Source of the DNA: an uncultured Candidatus Saccharibacteria bacterium
GTDB lineage: Bacteria > Patescibacteriota > CPR2 > UBA1875 > CAIMLA01
Assembly (NCBI GenBank): GCA_964594415.1
Contig: CAZQLQ010000001.1
Span: 159,265 to 223,264, forward strand
DNA: 64,000 nucleotides
Reading direction: 5' to 3'
Positions 42,468-61,965 of this stretch are shown piece by piece; within the stretch, counting starts at the first letter, position 1; each line of letters starts with the position of its first letter. Made by a program: the position numbers and the translations under genes. The notes under the pieces were generated by a model. That model saw only the letters and a list, made by a program, of their open reading frames with translations, made no database searches and was not told the DNA's origin.

Positions 42468-42504
42468 GAAAGGTGGAGTAAAAGTGGTGAATGAATTAGA
42501 TTAA

Positions 42505-42540: not shown

Positions 42541-42749
42541 TCCTTGAACTTATTACTTTTATAAAGGGAAAAGGTGCAGATACTTGACTTTTGTGCTCAT
42601 TTATGTCAATATATACATATAGTAGCTTGAAAACCGAATAAAAAGAGCTACACAGAGAAGGTTTCTCGAACTAAAACTTTTCAATCTTGGCACACAACCA
42701 AGCTTATTTTATAGTTGAGTTATTGTGACACGGCAGTAAAAGATAGGAG

Positions 42750-43397
42750 TTGATTGGGTTCAAGGAGAAAATATATTTTTTAATAGTCCTAGTTTCTCTA
42801 ATAACAGCTTCAAACTACACGTCTCATCCAAATTTAGCCCCACTCGCAGAAAATTCTGCACAACCTTCAGTGGTGATGGAGGAAAATTCTAGCGTTCCTA
42901 CAACTGAATTGCCGCCACCAATACTGATAAGTCCAGACCCAGTTCCGGCTCCGGTTCGAACCGAAACTGCTAACGTTTCTCGTGGAGGAGAAGTTTCTCG
43001 ACTTTCAAATGAGCAAATCATTTGGAATTTTTTGAGGCAATTTTTTAACGAAAAAGCAACCGCCGGCATTATGGGCAACATGGAATGGGAAAGTTCTTAC
43101 TCAACTGCTGATACTAGGGGCGGCTTAGGTCTTCTACATTGGATTGGTTCTCGCAGAGCAGAACTTATAGCCGAACATCCAAATGATTATTTAAATCTCG
43201 AAGTTCAGCTAGCCTATTTGATGAAAGAGCTAAACAAACCTTCCTACATCGGGACATATGAAAAATTAAAAAAAGTCACAACTGTTAATGAAGCCTGTAT
43301 TATTTTTCAGAACGACATCGAACGTCCTGGAATACCTAAACAAGCTGATCGTATTAGATGCGCAAATGAAATTTACCAAAAATATTCTGGCAAATAA
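42750..43397 (+). CDS. Secreted/anchored lysozyme-like peptidoglycan hydrolase (phage-tail-lysozyme-type domain), TTG start
   Basis: N-terminal signal anchor and Pro-rich linker. Then TAGIMGNMEWESSYS...GGLGLLHW...QLAYLM, which I recognise from memory as the phage_tail_lysozyme-type (PF18013-like) pattern. Confidence 0.55.
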   Translation: MIGFKEKIYFLIVLVSLITASNYTSHPNLAPLAENSAQPSVVMEENSSVPTTELPPPILISPDPVPAPVRTETANVSRGGEVSRLSNEQIIWNFLRQFFNEKATAGIMGNMEWESSYSTADTRGGLGLLHWIGSRRAELIAEHPNDYLNLEVQLAYLMKELNKPSYIGTYEKLKKVTTVNEACIIFQNDIERPGIPKQADRIRCANEIYQKYSGK

Positions 43398-43472: not shown

Positions 43473-44234
43473 ATGAGTACAAAAGCAGAACAGATCGCTG
43501 AACTAATAAAAGGTTCAGGACACACAATAATATTTACAGGAGCGGGAGCGAGTACCGAGGCGGGGATACCGGATTTTAGGAGTCCTGGCGGTATTTGGAC
43601 CAAATATGATCCTAGGGTGCTGGATATCAACTATATTTTGTCTAGCGATGAGGCAAAACGGGAATACTGGAAGTTCAACAAGGAGCTAGGGAAGATGACG
43701 GAGGGGTCAGAACCGGGAGATACTCATAAAATAATTGCTCAGCTTGAGAGCAAAAATCTGGTGAACACAATTATTACTCAAAATATCGATGCCTTGCATG
43801 AAAAAGCAGGAAGTAGGTCCGAAAATATTCTGGAACTTCACGGTAATGCGGCCAATGTAATCTGTATGAAATGCAAGGAAGAGTGCTCGATTTCGGAAAT
43901 TTTGAAGCGTCTTCAAGATGAAGATATACCGAGATGCGAGAATTGCGGAGGGATACTGAAGGTGGATTTTGTCTGTTTCGGAGAGCAGTTGCCGGCTGAT
44001 GTTTTGAACAGAGCCTTTGAAGAATCTTCGGCTTGCGATCTTTTTATAGTTATCGGTTCTTCACTGGTGGTAAATCCGGCAGCCCAGCTTCCGTATGTGG
44101 CAAAGGCAAACGGAGCAAAACTAGTAATTATAAATCTTTCCGATACTCCGCTTGATTCTTATGCAGACGTACTTTGGAACGTAGAATGCGATAAAGCTCT
44201 TTCTGAAGTAAAAGAAGCATTAGACTTAGAATGA
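43473..44234 (+). CDS. cobB: NAD-dependent protein deacylase, Sir2 family with zinc ribbon
   Basis: GAGASTEAGIPDFRSPGGIW, QNIDALHEKAG, Cys4 zinc module CMKC...CENCGG. Confidence 0.85.
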   Translation: MSTKAEQIAELIKGSGHTIIFTGAGASTEAGIPDFRSPGGIWTKYDPRVLDINYILSSDEAKREYWKFNKELGKMTEGSEPGDTHKIIAQLESKNLVNTIITQNIDALHEKAGSRSENILELHGNAANVICMKCKEECSISEILKRLQDEDIPRCENCGGILKVDFVCFGEQLPADVLNRAFEESSACDLFIVIGSSLVVNPAAQLPYVAKANGAKLVIINLSDTPLDSYADVLWNVECDKALSEVKEALDLE

Positions 44235-45830: not shown

Positions 45831-47114
45831 ATGAAAGTAACGAGAGAAGACCTTGGCAGCAAGGTGAAGTTGGTTATTGAGGTAGAGAAGGACAAGTTAG
45901 TAGAAGCCGGCGATGTGGCCTTCAATAAGCTAGCGCCAACTGTAAAAGTAGACGGATTTAGGCCAGGAAGAGCGCCGAGAAATATTGTTATCAGAGAAAT
46001 AGGCCAGCAGGCATTTGATGCTGAAGTTCTCGATAATGCAATCGTAAGCACCTATTACGAAGCGGTTATTCAGGAAAAATTAGATGTAGTTGGCTCTCCG
46101 GAAGTCAAAATTATTAAATTTGTGCCGACTGATGAACTTACTTATGAAGCAACTGTAGAAATAATGCCGGAAGTAAAACTGCCGGATTTGACAAAAATTT
46201 CTGTTAAGAGAGAAACGCAAAAGGTTACCGAAAAGGAAATTCGAGAAGTTTTGGATGACATTGCCAAACAGTTAGCAAAAAACGTGAAATCAGAAAAACC
46301 AGCTGTTTTGGGTGATAGGGTAGAGATAAATTTTGAAGGATTCAAATGCGGAGTCCCTTTTGACGGCGGAAAAAGCGAGAATCATCCTTTTGTTCTTGGT
46401 GAAGGCAAATTTGTGCCTGGATTTGAGGATCAGATAGCCGGGATGGCTGAAGGCGAGGAAAAGGAAATCGAAGTTACTTTTCCGGCAGATTACCACTCGA
46501 AGGACCTAGCCGGGCAGAAGACGACCTTCAAGATCAAGATGAACCTTGTCGAAAATATCATTTTGCCTGAGCTTACAGATGAGTTTGCAAAAAATGTAGG
46601 TCCTTTTACTGATCTTGCACAGCTCAAGGCTGATATCGAAAAAGAACTTCTTTTTACCAAAGAGAGAGAAGCTAGAAAAAAAGTAGAGGACGAGATTATC
46701 GAAAAGCTAGTCGAGAAGACCAAACTGGAAGCTCCTCACTCACTCGTGCACCAAGAAACTCACAGATTATTGCACGAGATGGAACACAACCTTCAGCATA
46801 GCGGACTTTCGATGGAAAAATATTATGAGATGGCGAAGAAAACTGAAGAAGAAGTAGAGAAAGATCTCGAGCCGGAGGCAGAAAAGCGCGTGAAGGGAGG
46901 ACTGGTACTTTCACAAGTCGCAAGAGATATAAAGGCTGAAGCCACTGAGGATGAAATAAATGCCTTTATCACAGAAAAAACTGCGCTTTATCCCGAGGAA
47001 CAGAGAAAACAAGCGGAAGAATATTTCGATACTGATAATGCAAGGCGTCAGGTAGAAAATGCGATAGTCGGCCAGAAGGTAATGGACCACCTCTACGAAA
47101 CCTGTTCTAAGTAA
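45831..47114 (+). CDS. tig: Trigger factor
   Basis: N-terminal ribosome-binding domain (GFRPGRAPRNIV), PPIase middle region, C-terminal arm. Confidence 0.9.
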   Translation: MKVTREDLGSKVKLVIEVEKDKLVEAGDVAFNKLAPTVKVDGFRPGRAPRNIVIREIGQQAFDAEVLDNAIVSTYYEAVIQEKLDVVGSPEVKIIKFVPTDELTYEATVEIMPEVKLPDLTKISVKRETQKVTEKEIREVLDDIAKQLAKNVKSEKPAVLGDRVEINFEGFKCGVPFDGGKSENHPFVLGEGKFVPGFEDQIAGMAEGEEKEIEVTFPADYHSKDLAGQKTTFKIKMNLVENIILPELTDEFAKNVGPFTDLAQLKADIEKELLFTKEREARKKVEDEIIEKLVEKTKLEAPHSLVHQETHRLLHEMEHNLQHSGLSMEKYYEMAKKTEEEVEKDLEPEAEKRVKGGLVLSQVARDIKAEATEDEINAFITEKTALYPEEQRKQAEEYFDTDNARRQVENAIVGQKVMDHLYETCSK

Positions 47115-47163: not shown

Positions 47164-47425
47164 ATGTCATCCCTGGCGCCATTCCAGGGATCTATATAAA
47201 AAGTATAGATTCCAAGGCTTGACACTTGGAATGACAATGGTGTGTCATCCTCGCGAACGCGGGGATCCCTCTTCTCCTTGTCATTCTGTCCGACGACTCC
47301 GATGAGTTCGTGTCGGACTCCGTCGGAGAGCGTAGTCGAAGAATCTCGTCCTCCCATGTCATTCCAAGAGTCAATCCTTGGAATCCATTTCTTTGCCTGC
47401 CCGAACCTTCAAGGGGTGGAATGAA
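47164..47425. repeat. Mosaic palindromic repeat cluster R1 (GTCATYC...GRATGAC unit family)
   Basis: Consecutive short hairpin units: GTCATCCCTGGCGCCATTCCAGGGATC, GATTCCAAGG..CCTTGGAATGACA, GTCATCCTCGCGAACGCGGGGATC, a 68-bp unit GTCATTCTGTCCGACGACTCCGATGAGTTCGTGTCGGACTCCGTCGGAGAGCGTAGTCGAAGAATCTCG, GTCATTCCAAGAGTCAATCCTTGGAATCC. Individual units recur in clusters R2-R8. Confidence 0.8.
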
Positions 47426-47495
47426 TTTAGTTTTGTATACTTAAATATTTATATTTATTTGCCTATAATAAGGAAGAAAATAAGCAAATACTATA

Positions 47496-47918: not shown

Positions 47919-48029
47919 TGCTTGTTTCCGACTTAGGAGATTTCACCTTGGCCGGTTCTAGGGCAAGCCCCACAAGCACAACTTCATTATATATCATTAA
48001 GAGTTTTTTGTAAATCCACCATCTTGTCG

Positions 48030-48240
48030 CTTGCCCGAACCTGTAAGGGGCGGGAAGGGTCTCTTTTACTTGTCATCCTCGTGCTTGACACGGGGATCTC
48101 TCTTCTCCTTGTCATTCTGTCCGACGACTCCGATGAGTTCGTGTCGGACTCCGTCGGAGAGCGAAGTCGAAGAATCTCGAGATCCTTCATTACATTCAGG
48201 ATGACATTGTATTTATTGTTCGAGCGCAGCGAGAACTATT
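48030..48240. repeat. Mosaic palindromic repeat cluster R2
   Basis: Contains TGCCCGAACCTGTAAGGGGCGGG unit, GTCATCCTCGTGCTTGACACGGGGATC, the 68-bp GTCATTCTGTCCGACG...GAATCTCG unit and CATTCAGGATGACATTGTATTTATTGTTCGAGCGCAGCGAGAAC unit. Confidence 0.8.
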
Positions 48241-48799: not shown

Positions 48800-49215
48800 T
48801 GATAAAAAGGAACACAAAAATCAAGAAAAACTGAACTCTTTTTAAAAAAATTACCCCTCTTTCAATATATTAAAGGAACTAGATCCCTGGAATGGCGCCA
48901 GGGATGACATCGGTATGAGGTAATTTTTTTAAAATGTCGGGCTACCGAGCCGAGCAGTTTTTCGGAGGGGGATCCTCTGTCATCCTCGACTAGTCAATTG
49001 AAAAATATAATCAGTTGATCGGGGATCTAGATTCCCGCTTTCGCGGGAATGACAATATTTCCCCCTGTCATTCTGTCCGACGACTCCGATGAGTTCGTGT
49101 CGGACTCCGTCGGAGAGCGTAGTCGAAGAATCTCGTCCGCCTGTTGTCATTCCTAGTCGCAAGCTAGGAATCCATTCTTTATATAGATCCCTGGGTTGGC
49201 GCCAGGGATGACAAA
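48800..49215. repeat. Mosaic palindromic repeat cluster R3
   Basis: GATCCCTGGAATGGCGCCAGGGATGACA, GTCGGGCTACCGAGCCGAGCAGTTTTTCGG unit, GTCATCCTCGACTAGTC..., GATTCCCGCTTTCGCGGGAATGACA, the 68-bp unit, GTCATTCCTAGTCGCAAGCTAGGAATCC. The 5' about 170 bp is colinear with R8 (62095-62240). Confidence 0.8.
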
Positions 49216-49233
49216 TTGTACTATAATACCTAC

Positions 49234-49773
49234 ATGACCACATACAAAATCCACATTTTTGAAATAGACAAGGGCAGTGGGAAGCTGTATATAAATTTCA
49301 GCACGAAGGGCGAAACGGAATGCTTCGCGAAGTTTAAAAAGAAAGTAAAAAAGGGCAATAATCCGATATCTCTAACCAAATCCCTTGGGACTTCAGAAGC
49401 ATTCCCGAAACAGAAAGAAGCAATAATCGCAATCGACGAGCTGATCAATGAGCTGGAGAAAAAGGGCTTCGAGGTAATAGCAGGGCCACCGTTTCAGAAT
49501 AAGTATTATCAAATATACGTAATAGAGCTAAACAACTACCCACATACGGTTTATGTCGGGCAGACGAAATATTTCCCGGAGATTAGACTCGCACAACACC
49601 AGATAGGGTACAATTCGGCGAGTGTAGTCCGAAGGGCAGAAAGTGCAAAACTTCGCCCGGATCTCTTCGTCCATATCGAGGAGGCCAAAACGAAAGAAGA
49701 GGCGCTGTATCTAGAGTCAGAAGTCGCAGAATATCTCAAATGGAAAGGGTATAAGGTTTACGGCGGCCACTAA
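49234..49773 (+). CDS. GIY-YIG nuclease-domain protein
   Basis: C-terminal YQIYVIEL...TVYVGQTKYFPEIRLAQHQ...E matches GIY-YIG core (GIY, YIG, R, H/E). Start uncertain: ATG 49216 overlaps a TACTATAAT -10, so 49234 is chosen and may be leaderless. Confidence 0.55.
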   Translation: MTTYKIHIFEIDKGSGKLYINFSTKGETECFAKFKKKVKKGNNPISLTKSLGTSEAFPKQKEAIIAIDELINELEKKGFEVIAGPPFQNKYYQIYVIELNNYPHTVYVGQTKYFPEIRLAQHQIGYNSASVVRRAESAKLRPDLFVHIEEAKTKEEALYLESEVAEYLKWKGYKVYGGH

Positions 49774-49927
49774 TATTGTATAAATATTTTATACAATATT
49801 TGCAATTGTGCAAAATTATCGAATTTTTGTGCATAAATAATCGCTCTGTATAGACAAAAAATCAAAATAAAAAGGCTTTATTTTCAAATTTACAAGAGTA
49901 TAATATGGTTAGTAATGAAGGACTTGT

Positions 49928-50278
49928 ATGGACAAAATAGAAGATTTACAGCAAAAAGTTGCAAAATTTAGAGATGACAGAGATTGGCAGCAATTTCATA
50001 ATCCTAAAGACTTAGCGATTGCGATATCTATTGAGGCGTCTGAATTACTAGAATGCTTTAGATGGAAGTCTATAAAAGAAGTTGAAGAATTTATGAAATC
50101 TGAAAAGTCTACCAGCGTGGAAGAGGAAATGGCGGACGTTCTTATTTTGCTCTTAAATCTGGCCGATACAACTGGGATTGATGTCGTAAAAGCGGCAAAC
50201 GATAAACTAGATGCAAATAATAAAAAATACCCTGTAGAAAAATCTAAGGGTAGCGCTAAGAAGTATACGGAGCTTTAA
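49928..50278 (+). CDS. MazG-like nucleoside triphosphate pyrophosphohydrolase (small, single domain)
   Basis: EASELLECFRW and EEEMADVLILLLNLA helices typical of the all-alpha NTP-PPase (MazG/YpjD) fold. Confidence 0.7.
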   Translation: MDKIEDLQQKVAKFRDDRDWQQFHNPKDLAIAISIEASELLECFRWKSIKEVEEFMKSEKSTSVEEEMADVLILLLNLADTTGIDVVKAANDKLDANNKKYPVEKSKGSAKKYTEL

Positions 50279-52146
50279 TGAGATTATATGAGGCATCGCT
50301 GGCTGATTTTAATAGGGACATAACTTATAATAAAATTACTGATATTCTAACTGAAGCATTTAGTTTTTTTTATAAAAAAGAACCCACAATTGGCGAAAAA
50401 CTATCTTGGACAAATTCTTTGAGACAGGTAAGGGACGTTCTTACTGAAGCCAAATTAACAGACAATTACATAGCGATTGAAACTGAGGTGCCCTATACCT
50501 CAAGAAGAATAGATGTACTTTTGTTTGGTAGGAATCAACAAAAAGGCGATAACATCGTTCTTATTGAGCTTAAACAATGGGATAATTCTGGAGTGTTGGA
50601 TTCAGAAATAGATGGTAATGTTTATGTAAAATACAGAAACGGCTTCAGCGAAGAGCCTCATCCTAGTTTGAAAGTAGAGGGATATCATTATGGATTGATT
50701 GACAATTACTCAATTTTTGAAGAACAGCCGCCTGTAAGTTTAGTTTCTTGCGTATTTTGTCATAATTATTCAAGGACGGCAGCAAGTCAAGTCTTGTTCA
50801 ATAACAAATTTTCTGAATATACAGAAAAATACCCGGTTTTTACAAAAGAGCAGGTTCAGGAACTGGGGAATTACTTAACACTGAGGTTAGCCGGAGGCGC
50901 TGGACTAGAAGTCTTTAATAGATTTATAACGAGTAATATAAGGCCATCCAAGAAACTACTTGATCACACTTCAGATATGATTCACAAGCAGCAAATATTT
51001 AATCTTATTGATGATCAAATTACTGCATATAATGCCATTAGGTCAGTATCTAATAAGCTGGCAAAATTAGATGAAAAGTCAGTTTTTATTATAAAAGGTG
51101 GCCCAGGAACAGGGAAATCTGTTATTGCTTTGGAGGTTTTGGGCGAATTACTAAGGAAAGGTTTTAACGCTTTTTATTTAACTGGCTCAAAGTCATTTAC
51201 TGAGACTCTGAGGAAAATTGTGGGCGTAAGAGCGAAAGACAGAATTAAATATTTTAATAGTTACAGAGATTATAAGGGCCCGCAAATTGATGTGTTTGTT
51301 TGTGACGAGGCTCATCGCATTAGAGAAAAAAGCAAAAAGATGTTTGATAGAAATGAGATTATTGACCAGTTACCTCCTCAAATAGATGAGATCTTGAAAG
51401 CAAGTAAAATGTCTATCTTTTTGATAGACGAAAAACAAACAGTTCGACCGGATGAAGTTGGAAGTGTTAGTATGATCAAAGAGGCCGCGATTAGAAATGG
51501 AGTTCTGCAGAAGAATATAAGGGAATACGAATTAACGACCCAATTTAGATGTAATGGGTCTGATTCTTATATTCAATGGCTAGACAATACTCTGCAGCTA
51601 GCAGATACTGATAAAGTTACTTTAGAGAAAAGTGATAAATATGATTTTAAAATTTTTTATACACCCCAATTGCTTAAAAGTGCTATTGAAGAAAAAAACA
51701 AGATAAAAGAAAATTCTTCACGTCTCGTAGCGGGTTTTTGTTGGCCATGGAGCGAACCGCTTGAGGACGGCTCCTTGGTTGATGATGTTATCATTGGCGA
51801 TTTTAAGATGCCCTGGGAAGATAAGAGAAATTTTTGGAAATGGGCCACAGACAAAAGCGGCATGGAACAGGTTGGAACAGTATACACCTCCCAAGGTTTT
51901 GAATTTGACTATATAGGTGTTATCTTTGGTCCAGACTTAACTTATAATAACAAAACAAAAAATTGGGAAGCACACCCAGATCTTTCTCACGATTCTATGT
52001 TAATAAGAAATAACGACAAAATAAAAGAACATCTGAAAAATGTTTACAGAGTTTTAATGTCTAGGGGAATGAAGGGTTGTTATGTGTATTTTATGGATAA
52101 AGAAACTGAAAAATATTTTCGTGATAGGTTGAATCTAGCCGAATAG
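50278..52146 (+). CDS. DUF2075/Schlafen-like nuclease-helicase: N-terminal PD-(D/E)xK nuclease plus SF1-like P-loop ATPase
   Basis: IDVLLF...IVLIELKQW (D...ExK), Walker A GGPGTGKS, Walker B VCDEAHR, C-terminal SQGFEFDYIGVIFG. Translationally coupled to the MazG-like gene (stop/start overlap). Confidence 0.8.
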   Translation: MRLYEASLADFNRDITYNKITDILTEAFSFFYKKEPTIGEKLSWTNSLRQVRDVLTEAKLTDNYIAIETEVPYTSRRIDVLLFGRNQQKGDNIVLIELKQWDNSGVLDSEIDGNVYVKYRNGFSEEPHPSLKVEGYHYGLIDNYSIFEEQPPVSLVSCVFCHNYSRTAASQVLFNNKFSEYTEKYPVFTKEQVQELGNYLTLRLAGGAGLEVFNRFITSNIRPSKKLLDHTSDMIHKQQIFNLIDDQITAYNAIRSVSNKLAKLDEKSVFIIKGGPGTGKSVIALEVLGELLRKGFNAFYLTGSKSFTETLRKIVGVRAKDRIKYFNSYRDYKGPQIDVFVCDEAHRIREKSKKMFDRNEIIDQLPPQIDEILKASKMSIFLIDEKQTVRPDEVGSVSMIKEAAIRNGVLQKNIREYELTTQFRCNGSDSYIQWLDNTLQLADTDKVTLEKSDKYDFKIFYTPQLLKSAIEEKNKIKENSSRLVAGFCWPWSEPLEDGSLVDDVIIGDFKMPWEDKRNFWKWATDKSGMEQVGTVYTSQGFEFDYIGVIFGPDLTYNNKTKNWEAHPDLSHDSMLIRNNDKIKEHLKNVYRVLMSRGMKGCYVYFMDKETEKYFRDRLNLAE

Positions 52147-52152
52147 AGTAAA

Positions 52153-52839
52153 ATGAAAGATATTTTAAAATATACAGAATTAACATCGAAAGAAAACTTG
52201 CCACTTCAAAAAGGTATGAATTTCAGGCCTTCTGGAAAGTCGTATTCTATTTTGTTGATGTCGGTAAGAAAAAATTCTCCGTATAACGACGGATTTGATG
52301 AAAATAATAATCTTGTTTATGAAGGGCATGATGTTTCAAAAAGACAAGGTATTGATCCTAAAAAATTAGACCAGCCAATGTTTAATTTAACAGGAACACT
52401 TACTGATAATGGTAAATTTTATAAAGCAGCAGAGGATTACAAACTATCTAGAAAAAATAAAGAAAAAATTCAGGTTTATGAAAAAATAAATGATGGAATG
52501 TGGTCTGATAAGGGCATGTATTATTTAATTGATGCAAGAACGGAGTTTTCGGAGACAGAGAAAAGAAAAGTCTTTAAGTTTGTCTTATCCCCAATCGAAT
52601 CATATTCTACTGATATAGAGGAAATAGTTGAAGACTTTGAATTTTCCCGTAGAATTCCAACTGTTATTAAGCAGAAAGTGTGGCAAAGAGATAATGGCAA
52701 GTGTGTAGAATGCGGTTCAAAAGATGATTTGCACTTTGATCACATCATCCCATTTTCTAAAGGAGGGTCTAGTTTAACTGAAAGTAATGTTCAGATTTTG
52801 TGCAGAAAATGTAATTTAAAAAAATCAGCAAAAATTTAG
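52153..52839 (+). CDS. HNH endonuclease with about 150-aa uncharacterised N-terminal domain
   Basis: C-terminal CVECGSKDDLHFDHIIPFSKGG...CRKCNLKK = HNH with Cys4 zinc. N-terminal domain unassigned. Confidence 0.75.
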   Translation: MKDILKYTELTSKENLPLQKGMNFRPSGKSYSILLMSVRKNSPYNDGFDENNNLVYEGHDVSKRQGIDPKKLDQPMFNLTGTLTDNGKFYKAAEDYKLSRKNKEKIQVYEKINDGMWSDKGMYYLIDARTEFSETEKRKVFKFVLSPIESYSTDIEEIVEDFEFSRRIPTVIKQKVWQRDNGKCVECGSKDDLHFDHIIPFSKGGSSLTESNVQILCRKCNLKKSAKI

Positions 52840-52991
52840 TTATTAATCAGAATTAGGTAAAAATGGCACTGGAAAAAAAATCAGTCAAATAATGAGTTTA
52901 CATCTGTCCTTGCGGGGGTGGCAGGGGAGTATTTTAAGAGTAGATTAAAACCATCTTGTTTGCTATAATAACGAAAATATGAGGAAATCAG

Positions 52992-53987
52992 ATGACTACT
53001 AATCGAATAACCGACTTAATAACTGAGCTTGAAGAAGATAGAAAATCTAAGGTTATAGTTTACTTTACTAGTGACAAGCAACCAAACGAACATTTTGGAA
53101 CCCAAGTACATCCTGAGCAGCTTGTTTATTTTCGTAAAATCTTAGAAGAAATAAAAAAAACGGAAAGAATAACTCTGGTTTTGGATACTAGAGGAGGTGC
53201 AATAGATATGCCTTGGCCCCTAGTTAATTTGATTAGAGAATATTGTAAAAAATTTGAAGTAATTATTCTAGAAAAGGCACTTAGTGCTGGAACATTGATA
53301 GCCTTAGGTGCAGATAAAATTGTCATGCAACCATTTTCACATTTAAGCCCTGTTGATCCCGCCACCTTTATCCCAGATGGTAATTCAAGTATTCTAAAGA
53401 AACTCGAAATAGAAGACATAATAGGTTTTATAGATTTTGCTAAGGAAAAAGTTGGCATTGCAGAACAGTCTTCGTTAACAGAAGTTATGAAAGAGCTAAC
53501 TAAGGAAGTTCGTCCGACGTTATTGGGTTCAGTAAATAGAACATACGCACTGATTAGAAAACTTGCTAGACAGCTCCTGTCTTTGCATAATGGAAAATTA
53601 ACGGAAAAACAAGTAAACGAGATTACCGAGCATTTGACACAGAAGCTTTATTCTCATAGTTATTTAATAAATAGGAAAGAAGCAAAAGAAATTATCGGCT
53701 TTGGCAATATTATTGAAAATTCTTCGGAAAATACGAAAAGGATTTCAAAGGATATAATGGATTATTATAGAGAAGTCATGGAAATTGAAAAAGATTTTGA
53801 CCCATTATATTTACTCTCCGAAAAAGAAACAGTTGACTGCAAGGTAGTCGGGGCAGCCATACATAGCAATACAATGAGATATTCCTTCAGCCATAAGATT
53901 AGGCTTACAAAAATCCCAGATCCGGCTGGTAGGCTAAATATTAATTTCGAGATACTAGAAAGAAAGTGGTCGGAAGAGAAAATTTAA
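52992..53987 (+). CDS. ClpP/SppA-fold serine peptidase (SDH-family-like)
   Basis: VLDTRGGAID...ALSAGTLIALGADKIVM resembles ClpP-fold nucleophile region. C-terminal alpha-helical extension. Confidence 0.5.
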   Translation: MTTNRITDLITELEEDRKSKVIVYFTSDKQPNEHFGTQVHPEQLVYFRKILEEIKKTERITLVLDTRGGAIDMPWPLVNLIREYCKKFEVIILEKALSAGTLIALGADKIVMQPFSHLSPVDPATFIPDGNSSILKKLEIEDIIGFIDFAKEKVGIAEQSSLTEVMKELTKEVRPTLLGSVNRTYALIRKLARQLLSLHNGKLTEKQVNEITEHLTQKLYSHSYLINRKEAKEIIGFGNIIENSSENTKRISKDIMDYYREVMEIEKDFDPLYLLSEKETVDCKVVGAAIHSNTMRYSFSHKIRLTKIPDPAGRLNINFEILERKWSEEKI

Positions 53988-53996
53988 GGAGAAGTT

Positions 53997-54212
53997 ATGT
54001 TGAATACTTGTAACACGGTGTGTACGTCTAATAACAAAATTGTTAATTTTGAAAACTTAACTGCCAGGGGTGGCAATGTCCCAAAGTATAAAGTAGTCGA
54101 ACATTACACTATAAATAAGTCAAGTGTATTGATTCAACATTATGATGAGGATTCAGACCAAAATATTGACTCAAAGATTAATAGAAAGTTTTTTGAAACA
54201 AGAAATGTTTAA
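53997..54212 (+). CDS. Hypothetical small protein
   Basis: ORF only. Confidence 0.3.
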   Translation: MLNTCNTVCTSNNKIVNFENLTARGGNVPKYKVVEHYTINKSSVLIQHYDEDSDQNIDSKINRKFFETRNV

Positions 54213-54215
54213 TAT

Positions 54216-54710
54216 ATGTACATTCCCAGTCACGAACTAGATAGAGGTAAATTTTATCAAGGGGATGTCGTAAAAGATTTCCCCTTTTTTGTATTGTCCA
54301 ACTTAGAAGATCAATTATCTATATTAACAAATACAAGAGAGGGTACGCTAGAAATTAAATCTAAACTTATAGATGTTATGATTCTTTCGCAAACTTGTGA
54401 TATACAAAGAAGAGACCAGATTATTATTGCTCCAATAGTCCCAATGCAACCGAGTATTGATAATGGTGACCTCGGAGTAAATATTTTGAACAATATTAAA
54501 AACCGTAAGATAAACTACTTGTTTTATTTACCGGAAAGTCCCGGAATAATTCCTGATTCATACTGTAATTTTCAGTTGATCTATTATGTTTCGCCCTTAT
54601 TATTAAATAATTTTATCAACAACAAAATTACATCTTTAAGTGATTGGGGTAGGCATCACCTTAGTTGGTCTCTTAGTAACTATTTTGGAAGACCAATTTT
54701 AAGTAAATGA
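54216..54710 (+). CDS. Hypothetical protein
   Basis: ORF, tightly packed after previous. Confidence 0.4.
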   Translation: MYIPSHELDRGKFYQGDVVKDFPFFVLSNLEDQLSILTNTREGTLEIKSKLIDVMILSQTCDIQRRDQIIIAPIVPMQPSIDNGDLGVNILNNIKNRKINYLFYLPESPGIIPDSYCNFQLIYYVSPLLLNNFINNKITSLSDWGRHHLSWSLSNYFGRPILSK

Positions 54711-54765
54711 CGAATACCAAATAATAAGCGACTTTTTGAGAAATAAATATTTTAAAAACATAAAG

Positions 54766-55083
54766 ATGTATATAATGCGACTTCAAAAATCTAATTTAGA
54801 AAAAGCGGAAGCTTTTGTGGAGTCGGTTGAGTGGATATTTGCTAAGACTTATGCAAAGACGGCTCCGCATGAATATATAGTGAAGAGATATCTGCCCAAA
54901 GAAAAGTGGGACGAATTTTTGTGGTTTGCCCGGCTTATCAGAGAAGAAGGGTATGATGGGAAATTTTATGACCATACCTATAGATACCTGGACATCGATG
55001 GTAAGAAATATTGGACTATGGATGAGGATGTCGAAATGACTGAGCTGATAAATAGGTGTGATGTCGGGGATGAGTATGAATAA
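54766..55083 (+). CDS. Hypothetical protein
   Basis: ORF. ATG at 54766 preferred over 54736. Confidence 0.35.
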   Translation: MYIMRLQKSNLEKAEAFVESVEWIFAKTYAKTAPHEYIVKRYLPKEKWDEFLWFARLIREEGYDGKFYDHTYRYLDIDGKKYWTMDEDVEMTELINRCDVGDEYE

Positions 55084-55522
55084 TTTAACTAAAGAAATTT
55101 TTGATGCGATAAAAAACGGAAAAAATGTTTTTCTTGTTGGGGCTACGGATAGCGGTAAAAGCTGGTTTTTACAAAATGAGATTATCCCTTTTCTAAGGGA
55201 AAATAATTATAAGGTTTGTTATCTTGAGGATAGTCTAGCCGATAGTCATATTTCAGAAAACTGCGATATTGTTATCGCCGATGAATATGAAACATTTGTC
55301 GATAAAGACTTTCTAGAAAAAAGACACCCCGAAGAAGTCCCATACTACTCTGGTTCATATATAAAACAGGTCAATAATTGTCAGAAAACATTAGGAAACG
55401 CAAGGTTTCCTGTAGTTTTTGTTATAACAAGAAATGAAGACGTGGAAATCGATTATCTAGTGAATAAGATAAGTGAGGAATATTCAGATTCTTTGGTTGC
55501 CCTGAAGATGACTAGGAAATAG
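55058..55522 (+). CDS. Small P-loop NTPase
   Basis: Walker A GATDSGKSW and Walker B IVIADEYE. Confidence 0.5.
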   Translation: MMSGMSMNNLTKEIFDAIKNGKNVFLVGATDSGKSWFLQNEIIPFLRENNYKVCYLEDSLADSHISENCDIVIADEYETFVDKDFLEKRHPEEVPYYSGSYIKQVNNCQKTLGNARFPVVFVITRNEDVEIDYLVNKISEEYSDSLVALKMTRK

Positions 55523-55605
55523 ATCCCAGGGTTTCCTCTAGAAGCGGACAAGTGCGACCAGGAATGACACAAATTCGTCAGGGATGATATACTCTATATT
55601 AGAGT
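55523..55605. repeat. Repeat cluster R4 (short)
   Basis: GATCCCAGGG..., CCAGGAATGACACAAATTCGTCAGGGATGAT: same GGAATGAC / GGGATG unit ends. Confidence 0.6.
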
Positions 55606-55897: not shown

Positions 55898-55929
55898 AAT
55901 TAGTTTCAAGATCGTTTCTTCTAATAAAT

Positions 55930-56090
55930 AGGTATGATGACGGGGATGAGTATGAGTGGGGGATAGGGAATGAGATTCTTCCCGCCCCTTTCAGGTTCGG
56001 GCAGACGTCAGGCTCCCTTCGACTAACGCTCTCCGACGGAGTCCGACACGAACTCATCGGAGTCGTCGGACAGAATGACAAAAAGGAATA
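55930..56090. repeat. Repeat cluster R5 (contains reverse-complement of the 68-bp unit)
   Basis: CGACTAACGCTCTCCGACGGAGTCCGACACGAACTCATCGGAGTCGTCGGACAGAATGACA is the reverse complement of the unit in R1-R3. Also CCCGCCCCTTTCAGGTTCGGGCAG is the reverse complement of TGCCCGAACCTGAAAGGGGCGGG. Confidence 0.8.
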
Positions 56091-56093: not shown

Positions 56094-56585
56094 ATGAATG
56101 AGAATTACATAAATGAATTAGAAGAATACATGATTTCGGTGTTGAAGGCTGGGAATAAGGGTAAGCCTCTTTCGATGCTCGCAAAATACAATTGCAGTGA
56201 GGTTTCGAGGCTCGTCGGTCTGAAGGTTCTTGAGTATCTAGGTGAAGATAGTAAGCCGTTTATACTAAAGGGTGAGGTGACTAAGAACGGAATAGATAAG
56301 GATAATATCCATGACATTTTAGGCTTTCTTGACGTTGATTCCTCAAAGTTCGTTCTTATTGATCCGACTATCTGGCAATTCTTCCCGGAAAGTGAAGAAA
56401 TTTTCTTGGGCGAATTTGAAGCGCTTGATGATGCAATTGCTTTCTGTGCTGATTTCTATGAAGGGGAGTGGAACTTTTCGGAATATGTAGACAAAGAGAG
56501 TGAAGACGTAAATGAGATGATGAAAATCATTAAGATGAATTGTGGCCAAGCCTCTGATTGGGAGAGAGATACAACCCAGGATTAG
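56094..56585 (+). CDS. Hypothetical acidic protein
   Basis: ORF between repeat clusters. Confidence 0.45.
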   Translation: MNENYINELEEYMISVLKAGNKGKPLSMLAKYNCSEVSRLVGLKVLEYLGEDSKPFILKGEVTKNGIDKDNIHDILGFLDVDSSKFVLIDPTIWQFFPESEEIFLGEFEALDDAIAFCADFYEGEWNFSEYVDKESEDVNEMMKIIKMNCGQASDWERDTTQD

Positions 56586-56589: not shown

Positions 56590-56830
56590 GGATGTATTGT
56601 TCGAGCTAAGGGAGAACTATTTATATTTAGGACTTCTCTCTGCGCTCGAAGAATAAAAATAGGGGAGGGGGCTAGATTCCAAACATCCTTCTTCGCCAAG
56701 GCTACGAAAGGACAAGTACGATTTGGAATGACACAGGGGAGTGAGGATTAGATTGCCGCGCTTCCAACTTCGCTAAAGCTTCGCTAGACAAGTCGCTCGC
56801 AATGACGATGAGGCGTGCAAGCAGGGGAAT
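56590..56830. repeat. Repeat cluster R6
   Basis: TATTGTTCGAGCTAAGGGAGAACTATTT, CTTCTCTCTGCGCTCGAAGAATAAAAAT and GATTTGGAATGACA units shared with R2, R7 and R8. Confidence 0.7.
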
Positions 56831-56885: not shown

Positions 56886-58511
56886 TTATGTTAGCCGGCC
56901 ATTTATTAATTCTATTGTTCGGTTTGGACGGATAGAGTCTATGAAATCTCTGTCGTGTGAAACAACGACGAAGGTTTCGGGATAAGTCTGAAGGGCTTTT
57001 TCTAGCTCTTCGATAGCTGGGATGTCCAGATGGTTTGTCGGTTCATCCAGGAGAAGTAAATTGGTGTTTTTATAGACTAGTGTTGCAAGAAGCAGTCTGG
57101 CACGTTCCCCAGGACTTAGACTCTTACCTTTTTGTTGGAGCTTTTCTTGGTCGAAGTTGAAGCTATGCAAGATGGTTCGCAACCTAGAGTCGTCGATAGG
57201 GCCGTCTTCTGAGGCAAGCTTCTTGGCGTTCTCGAGGGCTGAGATTTCTTCGTCAGGCAAACTCTTAAATTGGTCTATGAGGCCAATTTTCACTCCGTTC
57301 CCGAAACGAACATCTCCTTCTTCTGGGCTTTGCACTCCTTCGATAATCCGCAGTAGAGTCGTCTTACCACTGCCATTTGGGCCAGTGATTACGATTCGAT
57401 TTCCTCGCTCAATCATGAGATCGAGCGGACCGACATCGATCTTGGGATAATGGATTGTAACGTTTTTAAGCTCGACTAGAATATTGCTCACTTCGCCCTG
57501 GTGTCCGCTGAAGGCAAACTTCAGATTGATCTCTTTGAGCGGTTTCTGCGGTATCGCTAGCTGTTCTTCGCGAGTAGCTGTAGCTTTGGCGGTTGCAGAC
57601 AATCTACCTGCAGCCTTCTCTTTGGCCGAGTTTCTTCCTAACTTTTCAGTATCCGAAGCTTTCGAATTTGAATCTGCTCTCCTGGCTTCGTTGTGCAGTC
57701 TGCGACTTGTATCGCTTAGTCTTTTTCTCTCTTCCAGATATCTTTCGTAAGCCTCTTTCACTGATTTTTTTTGCGCTTCCCTCGCTTCTAAATATTCTTC
57801 GTATCCAAGCGAGTAGAGATCGATTCTAGATCCATCCGAGAGTAGTTCGGCAATTTTGGTCGTAACTGTTTTAAGCATTCGTCTGTCGTGAGTAACAATT
57901 ACAACAGCCGAGTTTGTGGAAAGCAGGAACGCTTCAAGAATCTCGATGCCTTCTAGATCCAAGTCGTTAGTCGGCTCGTCTAGCAAAAGAATGTCGAACT
58001 GCGACATAAGAATGGCCGCCAGCATTACGCGCTTGCGTTCACCGCCTGATAGGGTGCTGACAGGCTGTTCCAACAGACGAGTGTCGAGGGTAATTTTCTG
58101 CAATACTTTTTGAAGCCTCGTATCGAATGAATAAGTTCCAAGGTGTTCAACTTTTTCCATTGCTTGTTCGAGTCGGGAAAGAGATTCTTTGCTGGCATCA
58201 ACTTTCTCAGAAGCTTGTTCGAACTCAAGCTCGGCATCCATTATGCCAGTGAGCTTTTTGATGAATTCAACAACAGGTAGTTCGAGATGTTCTCTCGGTT
58301 CTTGAGGAAGGTAACCAACTATTAGATTGTCTCTGATTACTTTTCCAGACGACGGAAGGATTTCTCCAGCAATGATGCGGAGCAACGTGGTTTTTCCGGT
58401 TCCGTTAGGACCGATAAGTCCGATTCTTTCGCCCTCATTTATGATAAGCGAAATTCCTTTTAGAACCTCTCTAGTCTCATATTCGAATCGTACGTCGTCT
58501 ACTTTCAGCAT
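56886..58511 (-). CDS. ABC-F family ATPase (two ABC domains, charged interdomain linker, no TM domain)
   Basis: GPNGTGKTTLLRI / LSGGERKRVMLAAIL and GPNGSGKTTLLRI / LSPGERARLLLATL. R/K/E-rich linker between them. Confidence 0.85.
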   Translation of the reverse strand: MLKVDDVRFEYETREVLKGISLIINEGERIGLIGPNGTGKTTLLRIIAGEILPSSGKVIRDNLIVGYLPQEPREHLELPVVEFIKKLTGIMDAELEFEQASEKVDASKESLSRLEQAMEKVEHLGTYSFDTRLQKVLQKITLDTRLLEQPVSTLSGGERKRVMLAAILMSQFDILLLDEPTNDLDLEGIEILEAFLLSTNSAVVIVTHDRRMLKTVTTKIAELLSDGSRIDLYSLGYEEYLEAREAQKKSVKEAYERYLEERKRLSDTSRRLHNEARRADSNSKASDTEKLGRNSAKEKAAGRLSATAKATATREEQLAIPQKPLKEINLKFAFSGHQGEVSNILVELKNVTIHYPKIDVGPLDLMIERGNRIVITGPNGSGKTTLLRIIEGVQSPEEGDVRFGNGVKIGLIDQFKSLPDEEISALENAKKLASEDGPIDDSRLRTILHSFNFDQEKLQQKGKSLSPGERARLLLATLVYKNTNLLLLDEPTNHLDIPAIEELEKALQTYPETFVVVSHDRDFIDSIRPNRTIELINGRLT

Positions 58512-58599: not shown

Positions 58600-59808
58600 C
58601 TAGGTACACTTAGTGTTGTAATATTTTATAAAAGCAGAGATTCCATAAGGATCTTTGCTATAAACTTCGCCGTTAAATAAGTAAGCGCAGGCTTGGCATT
58701 CGGCTAATCCTTGTTTCCGAAAGTTAATAAAAGTCTCATTTTCTCGCCAATTCTTTACAAAGTTTTTATCAAATAAAGGCAGGTCTTCCTTTTTGTAATA
58801 ATCGGCTTCGTATAACAAGGCGCACGGCAACATATAGCCGTCTACGTCGATAGTTAGACCGCTAACTCCGGCGCGACAAACATCTCTCTTTACCCCCCTT
58901 AGGAATCCCTCGATTGCTGCGTTGGTAACGCCTGTCTTGACACCTTTTTGCTGTAGAGCGTATATCTCCATAATAAAATCAAAATATTTTTCTGGCTCAA
59001 TTACTAGGTCTTGATGCGAGCCTTTGAACGGCTTGAATAAATTGAAGTTGCAAGGACAGTCATGCTCCTGTGCAAATTCAATTAATTTTTTGTAATTTGG
59101 ATAGTTAAAATTGTTTAGAGTGCAGGAAATCTCGACATAAAAACCTTCTTTGCGGAGCTTGCTGATCGATTTCTCTACCTTTTCGAAGACTCCTTTTCCT
59201 CTAATCTCGTCGTTTATTTCTTTTATTCCTTCAAGGCTGACCAGGAAGGCTGGTTTGTTCTCCAATTTTTTTAATTTTTCGATAGTATCGTCATCTATTA
59301 ATGTGGCGTTTGTAATAATATTTACAGCGAATCCGTAATAATCGCAGGCTCTTTCTATGATTTTCATTGCGTCTTCGTGGAGAAAGATTTCTCCGCCGAC
59401 AAGATTGAGCATAAAAACTTTCTCTTTTGCCAGTAATGAAAGCCTATGGTCTATTTTCTCATAGCTAAGCAGTTTTGTGTAATCACCCTGAAAGCAGTGT
59501 TTGCATCTTAGATTGCAAGTGTTGCTGACCTGTATTTCTCCAGAAAGGGGAGTGTCAAAATAGTCTTTGTCTGGTACGGGATAGCTTAGCTGATCTTCTT
59601 TTAGGCTTTGCTTTATGTCTTCCAAGAAAGATTGTAGCTTCTCGGCATCTATCTTCAGCTCTTTTGATATTTCTTCAGCCGATTCCTCCATGTTGAAAAA
59701 CAGGTCTAGAATCCTAGACCCATCTTCGTTCACAAATACCAATTTCCTTATTTCCGGGAAAAAGGCTACCGTGTAGTCAGCATCTTTTCTTAATACTACT
59801 GTTTTCAC
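58600..59808 (-). CDS. Radical SAM / SPASM-domain peptide-modifying enzyme (GTG start)
   Basis: CNLRCKHCF (CxxxCxxC) radical-SAM cluster. C-terminal Cys-rich SPASM-like region (CPCNFN..., CRAGVSGLTIDVDGYMLPCALLYEAD). Confidence 0.85.
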   Translation of the reverse strand: MKTVVLRKDADYTVAFFPEIRKLVFVNEDGSRILDLFFNMEESAEEISKELKIDAEKLQSFLEDIKQSLKEDQLSYPVPDKDYFDTPLSGEIQVSNTCNLRCKHCFQGDYTKLLSYEKIDHRLSLLAKEKVFMLNLVGGEIFLHEDAMKIIERACDYYGFAVNIITNATLIDDDTIEKLKKLENKPAFLVSLEGIKEINDEIRGKGVFEKVEKSISKLRKEGFYVEISCTLNNFNYPNYKKLIEFAQEHDCPCNFNLFKPFKGSHQDLVIEPEKYFDFIMEIYALQQKGVKTGVTNAAIEGFLRGVKRDVCRAGVSGLTIDVDGYMLPCALLYEADYYKKEDLPLFDKNFVKNWRENETFINFRKQGLAECQACAYLFNGEVYSKDPYGISAFIKYYNTKCT

Positions 59809-61446: not shown

Positions 61447-61965
61447 ATGAAAATGCCACAAAAACTTTTTACCGAACATTTGCTATTAAGGCCAGTCTCT
61501 CCAAAGTATTCGAGAGAAGTATTCACGAATTTTACCGACGAAGTAACGGCTATGATGTATCCTTCTACTCCTAAGGAAGAGCAAGAGACAATTGATTATC
61601 TTGTTGAAGCAGAAGAAAAGATGAGAGAAGGTATAAATTATCAAGTGTTAATTTTTCTTAAAGACACGGATGAATTTATAGGAGGAGCAGGAGTTCATCA
61701 TATTGACACTAAAACTCCTGAGTTTGGAATTTGGATAAAAAAATCTGCTCAAGGGCATAAATATGGTAGAGAAGCAGTTGTGGGACTAAAAGACTGGGCA
61801 GATAAGAATCTAGAGTATGATTATTTAAGATACCCGGTAGTAACTAGCAATACACCTAGTAGAAAAATTCCGGAGTTTCTCGGTGGAAAAGAAGTAAATG
61901 AATTTGATACAGAAAAGCAGGACGGAACTATAATGAAAATGGTAGAATATTATATTTTTAAATAG
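61447..61965 (+). CDS. GNAT family N-acetyltransferase (RimJ/RimL-like)
   Basis: TEHLLLRP start typical of RimL-type GNATs. Central acetyl-CoA-binding-like block. Preceded by TGTGCTAAAAT -10. Confidence 0.7.
   Translation: MKMPQKLFTEHLLLRPVSPKYSREVFTNFTDEVTAMMYPSTPKEEQETIDYLVEAEEKMREGINYQVLIFLKDTDEFIGGAGVHHIDTKTPEFGIWIKKSAQGHKYGREAVVGLKDWADKNLEYDYLRYPVVTSNTPSRKIPEFLGGKEVNEFDTEKQDGTIMKMVEYYIFK

Follow-up and report, generated by a model that had tools for sequence, protein, structure and literature searches.

Candidate conflict cassettes between tig and clpP of an uncultured Saccharibacteria bacterium: a MazG-like/DUF2075 pair with changing nuclease neighbours and an SDH protease trio

Do the genes packed between two repeat clusters in an uncultured Candidatus Saccharibacteria bacterium form one defence system, or are they units that were inherited separately? 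We addressed this question for a 6.3-kb block (positions 49216-55522) of contig CAZQLQ010000001.1; positions follow the numbering of the window, that is, of the whole 64-kb stretch of DNA analysed. An earlier note on this DNA had described the block as a single, tightly packed and repeat-bounded candidate defence island encoding a GIY-YIG protein, a MazG-like pyrophosphatase, a DUF2075 nuclease-helicase, an HNH nuclease, a ClpP-fold peptidase and a small P-loop ATPase. Labels such as L001, L020 or L129 denote the fetched homologous loci that were compared with the window.

Nine open reading frames (ORFs), all on the + strand, lie within 49216-55522. Every ORF listed in the earlier note was found where it had been placed, on the + strand, and a Pfam profile search upheld all of its domain calls; instead of the two unknown ORFs that it counted, there are three unannotated ones, of 71, 164 and 115 amino acids (aa). 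The features of the block and its immediate downstream neighbour are:

49216..49773, +, GIY-YIG-domain protein, 185 aa from a TTG start (Pfam PF01541, E 6e-7)
49774..49927, +, intergenic region of 154 bp with the palindrome TATTGTATAAATATTTTATACAATA (49774-49798) and a perfect TATAAT (49899-49904)
49928..50278, +, MazG-like all-alpha NTP pyrophosphatase (Pfam PF12643, E 9e-20)
50278..52146, +, DUF2075 nuclease-helicase, 622 aa (Pfam PF09848, E 1e-85)
52153..52839, +, SRA-HNH protein, 228 aa; SRA at about residues 1-150, zinc-ribbon HNH at residues 184-227 (PF01844, E 8e-13)
52907..52968, +, terminator-like hairpin (52907-52927) followed by TGcTATAAT (52960-52968), from a terminator scan and a reading of the sequence
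52992..53987, +, SDH-family ClpP-fold serine protease, 331 aa (Pfam PF01972, E 1.6e-14)
53997..54212, +, small protein of 71 aa with an acidic stretch, placed by conserved position and alignment
54216..54710, +, 164-aa protein with a MazF/Kid/CcdB toxin fold
54736..55083, +, 115-aa ORF whose 3' end overlaps the ATPase gene
55058..55522, +, mini P-loop NTPase, 154 aa, likely start ATG 55076 by family comparison
56094-56585, orf163, downstream of the mini-ATPase gene

In our reading, which has a probability of about 0.6, the block was acquired horizontally and is a mosaic of conflict cassettes, each inherited independently, within the variable DNA that separates tig from clpP. The firmest part of this reading, very likely in our view, is the mosaic itself, made up of units with separate inheritance. 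Cassette A comprises the MazG-like, DUF2075 and SRA-HNH genes (49928-52839), cassette B the SDH, 71-aa and 164-aa genes (52992-54710), unit C the GIY-YIG gene and unit D the mini-ATPase gene. We consider it fairly probable, as a prediction from sequence and gene context, that both cassettes A and B serve in conflict or defence.

In no other locus fetched did the GIY-YIG, SDH, 71-aa, 164-aa, 115-aa or ATPase gene stand beside MazG/DUF2075. A single, tightly packed system with the peptidase and the ATPase among its parts was therefore not supported: the SDH gene belongs to a trio of its own, the ATPase gene goes with orf163 in a relative, and signals split the block. The spacing is minimal inside cassette A, where the MazG stop overlaps the DUF2075 start and 6 nucleotides (nt) separate DUF2075 from the HNH gene, but not elsewhere, since two gaps of 152-154 bp carry promoter- or terminator-like signals. 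The hairpin and TGcTATAAT in the 152-bp gap after the HNH gene likely mark the boundary of two transcription units. The gap at 49774-49927, with its TATAAT and palindrome, is a candidate promoter/operator of the MazG-DUF2075-HNH unit; a promoter scan returned no full -35/-10 site there. The look of a conflict island described in the earlier note was borne out, the block resembling horizontally acquired DNA with a GC content of 33-34% against 38-40% in the flanks.

The MazG-like/DUF2075 pair and its nuclease neighbours

The 622-aa protein matched PF09848 (DUF2075/Schlafen group 3) over the whole model (1-354/354; residues 267-607) with 288.6 bits, for a cut-off of 24. The motifs first quoted for it (D...ELK, P-loop, Walker B and SQGFEFDY) are all present and proved invariant in an alignment of 20 sequences from bacteria, archaea and one phage, in which E68, R77, D79 and E97-L98-K99, the P-loop G274-K280, the Walker B segment D343-E344-x-H346-R347 and T537, Q539 and G540 of SQGFEFDY are conserved throughout. 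These motifs predict a PD-(D/E)xK-type nuclease motif set at the N-terminus and a superfamily 1 (SF1)-like helicase behind it, that is, an Nhi-like architecture. Assignment to the Nhi class held only in part: the N-terminal nuclease plus DUF2075 architecture is there, but the PADLOC Nhi model was not matched over its full length (positions 191-344 of 470, E 2.1e-12). The PADLOC matches of the protein, all partial, were to PDC-S41 (2.7e-18), AbiO (6e-13), Nhi (2e-12) and NERD+UvrD (1.5e-3), the last being a weak match that spans residues 49-376. Nhi from Staphylococcus, Nhi-like, AbiO and the PADLOC candidate PDC-S41 have the same order of parts, with nuclease motifs at the N-terminus and the DUF2075 (PF09848) helicase core behind them; the window protein differs from Nhi, AbiO and PDC-S41 in that it matches their models partially and weakly, with 44-64 bits. 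Nhi and Nhi-like are reported anti-phage systems that share no sequence identity, Nhi-like being defined by an N-terminal nuclease plus DUF2075 (Millman et al. 2022, bioRxiv 10.1101/2022.05.11.491447). Both are described as stand-alone, whereas about three quarters of the loci of the window family have a MazG-like gene linked to it, and a second nuclease is often linked as well. PDB sequence searches with the DUF2075 protein and its profile returned P-loop regions and a weak SLFN11/SLFN5 match only, and gave no structural analogue for the N-terminal domain.

Many relatives within the window subfamily end in an additional domain, a LexA-like S24 peptidase (PF00717, E 1.3e-6 for L007), that the window protein lacks. 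This domain suggests control through self-cleavage or a link to DNA damage. The relatives that bear it (L003-L009, L014, L017, L072) are about 790-800 aa long and carry the motif GKSMEPTIPDGS in their C-terminal 170 aa or so. Some loci contain a second DUF2075 paralogue in tandem.

The MazG-like protein scored 71.1 bits against PF12643 (Pfam cut-off 27). In PDB sequence searches it matched, over its whole length, DCTPP1 (6sqw, E 1.9e-23) and RS21-C6 (2a3q, E 1.9e-23), and it is clearly a homologue of dCTP pyrophosphatase 1 (DCTPP1/RS21-C6) by sequence. With the mammalian enzymes and archaeal homologues (PDB 4qgp) it shares whole-protein homology and the ExxE...ExxD metal-binding motifs, which are intact (E36-x-x-E39 and E67-x-x-D70). 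Among 15 MazG-like partner sequences R18, W20, F23, H24, E36, E39, W46, E67 and D70 are invariant, and W20 and W46 align with W47 and W73 of mouse RS21-C6/DCTPP1. DCTPP1 prefers 5-modified dCTPs, and enzymes of this type are house-cleaning enzymes. Unlike DCTPP1, the window protein is encoded by a gene that is translationally coupled to a nuclease-helicase gene on mobile DNA.

Relatives of the 622-aa protein were found at 19 loci in a scan of one genome per species. The closest, only 52-56% identical, come from Saccharimonadales, Woesearchaeota, Omnitrophota, Planctomycetes and Nitrospirae, and more distant ones from Bacteroides, Chryseobacterium and Mucilaginibacter; at 32-56% identity, DUF2075 homologues extend to many phyla, plasmids and phages. 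Such a scatter over phyla at 52-56% identity is the pattern of a horizontally mobile gene, not of a housekeeping helicase. The MazG-like gene lies immediately 5' of DUF2075 in 17 of the 18 genome loci that have upstream sequence. Over bacteria, archaea and phages together it adjoins DUF2075 in 21 of 29 non-redundant loci, plus one remnant, a tally that includes Priestia and Halalkalicoccus plasmids, the Microcystis phage Mwe-JY31 and a giant-virus metagenome (GVMAG) contig; the arrangement is atypical in two of the 21, divergent in L125 and downstream in L131. The recurrent association named in the earlier note is thus real. A scan of viral contigs with the DUF2075 alignment, for which the patterns used were generic P-loop motifs, yielded only 5 loci. 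Two of the loci have a protein of about 660 aa with tetratricopeptide (TPR) repeats encoded directly 5' of the pair, with gaps of 1 and 9 nt (L015:7697-9673 in Mucilaginibacter and L115:1629-3647 in the Microcystis phage Mwe-JY31, respectively); it is possibly a further accessory component. Literature searches found no DUF2075 and MazG, MazG-like and Schlafen, or relevant MazG and Nhi combination; their coverage was incomplete and the result is not proof of novelty.

The third gene of cassette A was then considered. The 150-aa N-terminal domain of the HNH protein had been called novel and guessed to read a nucleic-acid modification. The domain is a known one, of SRA fold, and the guess fits this fold. 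Pfam SAD_SRA gave a sub-threshold match to residues 17-147 (E 2.6e-3). For the AlphaFold model of the protein (predicted local distance difference test score, pLDDT, 84), the comparison list was headed by SUVH5 (11.5, 28% identity), UHRF1 (11.2), LpnPI (11.1) and TagI (11.1), then ScoMcrA (10.9), MspJI (8.9), AspBHI (8.4) and SauUSI (7.5), with HNH domains after them. The aromatic walls of the base pocket, Y44 and Y56, are invariant and have the canonical spacing (Y55 and Y67 in TagI). The C-terminal part is a PF01844 HNH domain with catalytic His/Asn and a Cys4 zinc site: C184, H194, H197, N212, C217 and N221 are invariant in the family and C187 is present in at least 90% of it, as judged from 53 aligned full-length homologues. 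More than 5000 matches belong to this family, and those with names are mostly from Patescibacteria.

By fold and sequence, the protein is a new member of a known family with the architecture of type IV modification-dependent restriction enzymes. Characterised SRA-HNH enzymes of this kind are TagI, ScoA3IV and TbiR51I (PMC6212794, PMC4333417), and TagI-like enzymes cut DNA containing 5-methylcytosine or 5-hydroxymethylcytosine and restrict phage (PMC6212794). TagI, ScoA3IV/Sco5333 and TbiR51I have the same SRA plus HNH architecture as the window protein. It differs from the TagI group in that a phmmer search reached only the HNH part of solved enzymes, with SAD_SRA below threshold, in that the canonical pocket Asp is apparently Gly, and in that a minority of the loci of its family embed the gene in a MazG/DUF2075 operon. 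A motif search of the ORFs of the 64-kb window found no host cytosine methyltransferase.

SRA-HNH is the only other window gene that recurs beside the pair, downstream of it in L007, L020/L021, L024 and L072 and upstream in L008. A candidate further triad, L022, was rejected: the 216 bp 5' of its HNH gene are non-coding and hold no DUF2075 C-terminus. More generally, a co-oriented nuclease-type neighbour occurs in 9 of the 29 loci, and Pfam scans gave several of these neighbours modified-DNA reader domains. The neighbours of the pair include:

L001, an unrelated SAD_SRA (E 1.5e-42) and HNH_2 protein, gap 22 nt
L007 and L008, SRA-HNH, gaps 10 and 22 nt
L111 (Priestia plasmid), an MrcB_N (4e-57) and HNH protein, stop overlapping the MazG start by 4 nt
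L005, a bare HNH protein, gap 1 nt
L018, a PDDEXK_5 nuclease, gap 79 nt
L113, an EEP nuclease, gap 21 nt
L114 and L132, DUF3883/NOV_C proteins
L014 and L015, NUDIX enzymes, gap 12 nt

One comparison is striking. The MazG-like and SRA-HNH proteins of L020 share 79% and 80% identity with their window counterparts, whereas the DUF2075 protein between them (L020:7068-8954) is only 33% identical and belongs to another subfamily, being 56% identical to Mucilaginibacter and Microcystis phage proteins. The high-identity flanks around this divergent gene indicate that the three-gene frame was kept and the middle gene exchanged in situ. The HNH genes associated with the pair fall into two or three separate clades of a neighbour-joining tree. 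Altogether, we read these data as a two-gene core with a facultative, swappable nuclease partner, in which the pair and SRA-HNH each also occur alone. A description of this near-obligatory DCTPP1-like partner with swappable reader-nucleases was not found in the literature searched, which was covered incompletely.

The same data bear on a closer form of cooperation, in which the MazG-like, DUF2075 and SRA-HNH proteins would be the subunits of an obligate, ATP-dependent and modification-dependent machine, a split analogue of SauUSI or McrBC with the exchangeable reader-nuclease as its specificity subunit. The genes are co-oriented and separated by anything from a 4-nt overlap to 22-nt gaps in the window, L001, L007, L008, L020, L072 and L111 (76 nt in L024), at least three unrelated reader types adjoin the pair, and the operon frame survived the DUF2075 swap. 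Modification-dependent enzymes of the McaZI group have also been seen beside DUF2075 proteins, and a joint assay was proposed (Lutz et al. 2019, PMC6765204); this adjacency fits the machine as well. However, about 70% of the pairs have no nuclease neighbour, the pair is missing beside about 94% of the SRA-HNH homologues for which sufficient upstream DNA is available, SRA-HNH enzymes that stand alone are active (PMC6212794), and the DUF2075 protein has nuclease motifs of its own. The likeness to known machines is also limited: SauUSI is a single chain with a phospholipase D-type (PLD) nuclease and a superfamily 2 (SF2) helicase, whereas in the window separate genes encode the parts and the motor is an SF1-like DUF2075 protein, and McrBC uses an AAA+ GTPase, whereas the window set adds a nucleotide pyrophosphatase whose cooperation is putative. 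We thus regard obligate dependence of the three proteins on one another as doubtful.

A second alternative is that the pair serves housekeeping DNA repair and sanitising of the nucleotide pool, its neighbours being coincidental. The house-cleaning homology of the DCTPP1 type, the NUDIX/MutT genes that adjoin the pair in L014, L015 and L111, and the LexA-like S24 domain of many relatives, with the DNA-damage link that it suggests, would agree with this role. Against it stand the patchy, phylum-hopping distribution at 52-56% identity, the presence of the pair on plasmids, in phages and beside recombinases and restriction-modification genes, the in-situ exchange of DUF2075 subfamilies and the architecture common to the reported anti-phage Nhi and Nhi-like proteins, and we find the housekeeping role improbable.

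The SDH protease trio

The protease of cassette B scored 54.1 bits against PF01972 (cut-off 31.3) and has the nucleophile motif LSAGT, whose S98 is invariant in the family. It matched NCBIfam Clp_like_SDH (NF047768) at 2.3e-18 with 66.6 bits; since the equivalog cut-off of 250 bits was not reached, it represents a divergent subfamily. It also matched phrog_11747 (2e-36) and, weakly in sequence, the PH1510 NfeD protease. Wherever the context of an SDH homologue (55-77% identity) was examined, an ORF of 67-72 aa and a homologue of the 164-aa protein of 160-176 aa (48-70%) come after it. Apart from the window, the contexts are:

L102 (8460-13640), SDH trio between an HTH_3 gene and a gene for a 517-aa resolvase (serine recombinase)
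L116-L119, SDH trio beside an EcoRI-type methylase, GmrSD_N-HNH and a Panacea toxin-antitoxin module
L120-L123, SDH trio beside DpnII restriction-modification genes

MazG, DUF2075 and SRA-HNH are absent from all three. Among 49 homologues of the 164-aa protein, at least 24 have a longest contig of the same size as that of a listed SDH homologue, and in one SDH/164-aa pair of homologues the NCBI locus tags lie two gene positions apart.

The 164-aa protein has the SH3-like barrel fold of MazF/CcdB. The 71-aa protein matched no family in Pfam, PADLOC, NCBIfam or PHROGs; it evolves fast and has an acidic stretch and a conserved C-terminal motif, K-x-x-K-K-x-F-E-T-K-N. An ORF of 67-72 aa takes the same place in all four SDH contexts, the antitoxin position directly 5' of the toxin-fold gene. 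A small acidic gene followed by a toxin gene is the usual antitoxin-toxin order, which supports a toxin-antitoxin reading. With the type II modules MazEF, Kid-Kis and CcdAB the trio shares the MazF/CcdB fold and the small acidic protein encoded just 5', and it adds a protease gene to the operon. It differs from them in that no DNA-binding antitoxin domain is recognisable, and the window 164-aa protein differs from MazF and CcdB in having no sequence-level PemK/MazF match and about 50 extra residues. Makarova et al. in 2009 reportedly described three-gene toxin-antitoxin modules with a peptidase (a COG2856 Zn-peptidase, Xre and a toxin). The trio departs from type II and COG2856 modules in its protease, a serine protease of the SDH type with a ClpP fold that is neither the Lon/ClpXP of the host nor a COG2856 metallopeptidase. 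A trio with an SDH ClpP-fold protease and a MazF-fold toxin was not found described in the literature searched, and a search on SDH/ClpP-like proteases in phage defence, with incomplete coverage, returned irrelevant results only.

The trio could instead be a remnant of prophage morphogenesis, a head-maturation protease with scaffold or decoration genes. Weak matches to head-maturation proteases exist (NCBIfam 5.9e-8, PHROGs 1e-6 to 3.5e-4), the best PHROGs, phrog_11747 and phrog_4575, have no known function, and distant homologues occur on IMG/VR viral contigs. Yet capsid, portal and terminase genes are missing next to the trio in all four contexts, where its neighbours are restriction-modification, toxin-antitoxin and recombinase genes, the partner 164-aa protein has a MazF/CcdB fold and not that of a capsid or scaffold protein, and the trio is intact at 48-77% identity. 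When viral contigs were searched, the single SDH sequence matched nothing and the SDH alignment matched 7 distant loci (IMG/VR), all without the 164-aa partner. A prophage origin is thus very unlikely, and we retain the reading of the trio as a conflict cassette.

Proposed mechanism and points against it

The comparisons establish the gene content, the folds, the integrity of the catalytic motifs, the patterns of co-inheritance and the mobile or defence-type surroundings. How the cassettes would act can only be sketched, and we hold the particular steps as tentative. In cassette A, the SRA domain would flip out a modified base in invading DNA and the HNH domain would nick or cut that DNA. The DUF2075 motor-nuclease, driven by ATP, would then unwind and degrade the DNA of the invader or its replication intermediates, as reported for Nhi. 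The MazG-like enzyme would hydrolyse dCTP-type, probably 5-modified, nucleotides; this might starve phages whose DNA is modified, or stop modified nucleotides that have been recycled from being built into the DNA of the host and so avoid self-restriction. Cassette B might be a toxin-antitoxin or abortive-infection module in which the acidic 71-aa protein neutralises the toxin; its removal by the SDH protease of the operon, in response to a trigger, would free the MazF-fold toxin.

Put in its widest form, the pair may be the engine of a modular family of modification-targeting restriction systems: a nuclease-helicase and a destroyer of modified dCTP, combined with interchangeable reader-nucleases (SRA-HNH of two lineages, MrcB_N-HNH and DUF3883), that would hit hypermodified phages at both their DNA and their nucleotide pool. 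It would stand here beside a second new cassette, a MazF-fold toxin-antitoxin module with its own ClpP-fold protease. We put this forward as a conjecture, with a distinctly low probability. If the MazG-like enzyme works with the nuclease-helicase, the modified nucleotide pool of phages would be a defence target coupled to DNA degradation, and the widespread but unstudied DCTPP1-like/DUF2075 pairing of bacteria, archaea and phages would have a function. Swappable reader-nucleases would also explain scattered earlier sightings of modification-dependent enzymes beside DUF2075 proteins. A MazF-fold cassette equipped with a protease would not depend on host Lon/ClpXP, a point relevant to the small genomes of Patescibacteria. 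For the present, the value of the block lies in two well-defined, clonable candidate systems.

Several points speak against reading the block as a mosaic of conflict cassettes that act in this way. The defence role is a prediction, and the substrate specificity of the MazG-like enzyme is deduced from homology. PADLOC-DB v2 made no complete system call in the block: it gave only partial single-domain matches, which fell on the HNH domain and the helicase core, and the MazG, SDH, 71-aa, 164-aa, 115-aa and GIY-YIG proteins had none. No mobility gene lies inside the island of the window. In the SRA domain, a by-eye alignment (YNDGFD against YEDDVD of UHRF1) puts Gly47 at the position of the canonical pocket Asp (D58 of TagI, D469 of UHRF1), an invariant Asp46 standing one residue before it, and SRA domains that read N6-methyladenine exist (PMC10101028). 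The pair is mostly found without SRA-HNH, and was present in only 2 of the 32 metagenomic HNH-anchored loci whose upstream sequence spans 2.5 kb or more, so that co-location could reflect clustering in islands and not cooperation. As for cassette B, the 164-aa protein has no Pfam PemK/MazF match at E<=0.01 and likewise none in NCBIfam or PADLOC, and both an antitoxin fold of the 71-aa protein and the protease substrate are putative.

On the other side, the neighbours of cassettes A and B at other loci include type I and DpnII restriction-modification genes, GmrSD-HNH, Cas3 and serine recombinases. The pair of cassette A and the trio of cassette B are both missing from the systems described in the literature searched, and the DUF2075 member fails the full-length Nhi model.

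Borders, repeats and chromosomal setting

The right border could be placed by comparison with a related genome. In L129, whose ClpP and RpoB are 93% and 90% identical to those of the window, the ATPase gene (58% identical product) is followed by orf163 (68%) in the same order as in the window; the 2.8 kb 5' of the ATPase gene contain no island genes but radical-SAM and FGase genes instead. Given this synteny in the absence of the island, we place the right border of the defence cassettes before 55076, and the sequence comparison suggests that the mini-ATPase belongs with orf163 and to neither cassette. The ATPase gave only weak P-loop matches, yet a search of 1.8 billion proteins recovered 68 cluster representatives at E<=1e-3, so that its family, though small, is real. 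Most members have 140-155 aa and start close to residue 7 of the ORF, which makes ATG 55076 the probable start.

The left-hand GIY-YIG gene appears to be a solitary nuclease gene, with no conserved partner found. Its nuclease domain covers residues 98-171, the N-terminal 95 aa or so have no assigned domain, and its true start is likely ATG 49234; the exact TTG-start product is absent from the protein collection, and a PDB sequence search gave no useful match. Neither this protein nor the 115-aa ORF has a homologue in any of the 123 fetched loci, and the 115-aa ORF gave no family match in Pfam, PADLOC, NCBIfam or PHROGs and no tblastn match in these loci. An 85-aa GIY-YIG protein encoded about 400 bp 5' of the SDH trio on a different, Patescibacteria-like contig (L116:5328-5585, L119:55-312) has no detectable homology to the 185-aa protein of the window.

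The repeats that gave the block its first description are real and do bracket it. A 41-nt core occurs four times in the window, with + copies at 47.3, 48.1 and 49.1 kb and an inverted copy at 56.0 kb, and never in 100 shuffles; a perfect 55-nt inverted pair (49066-49120 and 56026-56080) encloses the block. The copies on either side are:

49044..49135, left GC-rich repeat copy of about 90 nt, with further copies at 47257-47348 and 48088-48179
56026..56081, right inverted repeat copy, 100% complementary to the left copies over 55-56 nt

The clusters are mosaics of small palindromic units, among which the 55-90-nt unit is perfectly conserved between copies, and related short units also lie in intergenic DNA of L129. 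They are thus not island ends but lineage-wide intergenic elements, similar to repetitive extragenic palindromic (REP) sequences, and resemble mosaics of the REP/BIME (bacterial interspersed mosaic element) or MITE (miniature inverted-repeat transposable element) type. We rejected them as ends of a transposon-like element, given that 47-62 kb holds no transposase or recombinase, that the units are mosaic and that they occur in intergenic DNA of the relative. A tRNA-targeted integrative element was rejected as well, since Rfam and tRNA scans of the island found no family and no tRNA integration site. The GC-rich and partly palindromic clusters, which occupy the intergenic DNA on both sides of the island (47164-47430, 48019-48240, 48880-49213, 55546-55571, 55921-56081 and 56592-56742), match no Rfam family and contain many units that end in GGAATGACA / TGTCATTCC.

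A repeat-bounded, multi-component defence system with all nine genes as members, running from the GIY-YIG gene to the mini-ATPase gene, might be suggested by their single orientation, the low GC content of the block and its flanking repeats, but it is hardly credible when the GIY-YIG gene, the SDH trio, the 115-aa ORF and the ATPase gene never accompany MazG/DUF2075/HNH in other loci fetched, the trio occurs elsewhere without cassette A, the ATPase gene is syntenic with orf163 in a relative that has no island, terminator- and promoter-like signals divide the block and related repeats lie in intergenic DNA of that relative.

In the window, tig (45831-47114) and clpP (62284-62901, then rpoB) are 15 kb apart and the DNA between them looks variable. 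L129 carries other genes ahead of clpP, and the interval may be an insertion hot spot in the lineage. Both cassettes may travel as cargo of small integrative elements, serine recombinases being present at L020 and L102 and absent from the window copy. The MazG-DUF2075-HNH triad of L020 (2923-9643) lies 2.2 kb from a gene for a 534-aa Resolvase/Recombinase protein. The tig-clpP interval also holds genes for an ABC-F ATPase (56886-58511, - strand), a radical SAM/SPASM protein (58600-59808, - strand) and a GNAT acetyltransferase (61447-61965).

Further upstream, a gene for a SIR2-family protein (PF02146, E 3e-51) lies at 43473-44234, about 1.6 kb 5' of tig; SIR2 domains occur in defence systems too. 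It is preceded by about ten ORFs of some 200 aa (35137-43397, + strand), mostly with TTG or GTG starts, among which distant paralogues could be recognised (39474/40302 with 34% identity; 36675/37892/41042 with 28-34%). Finally, an ORF of 2571 aa with a signal-peptide-like N-terminus occupies 3135-10850.

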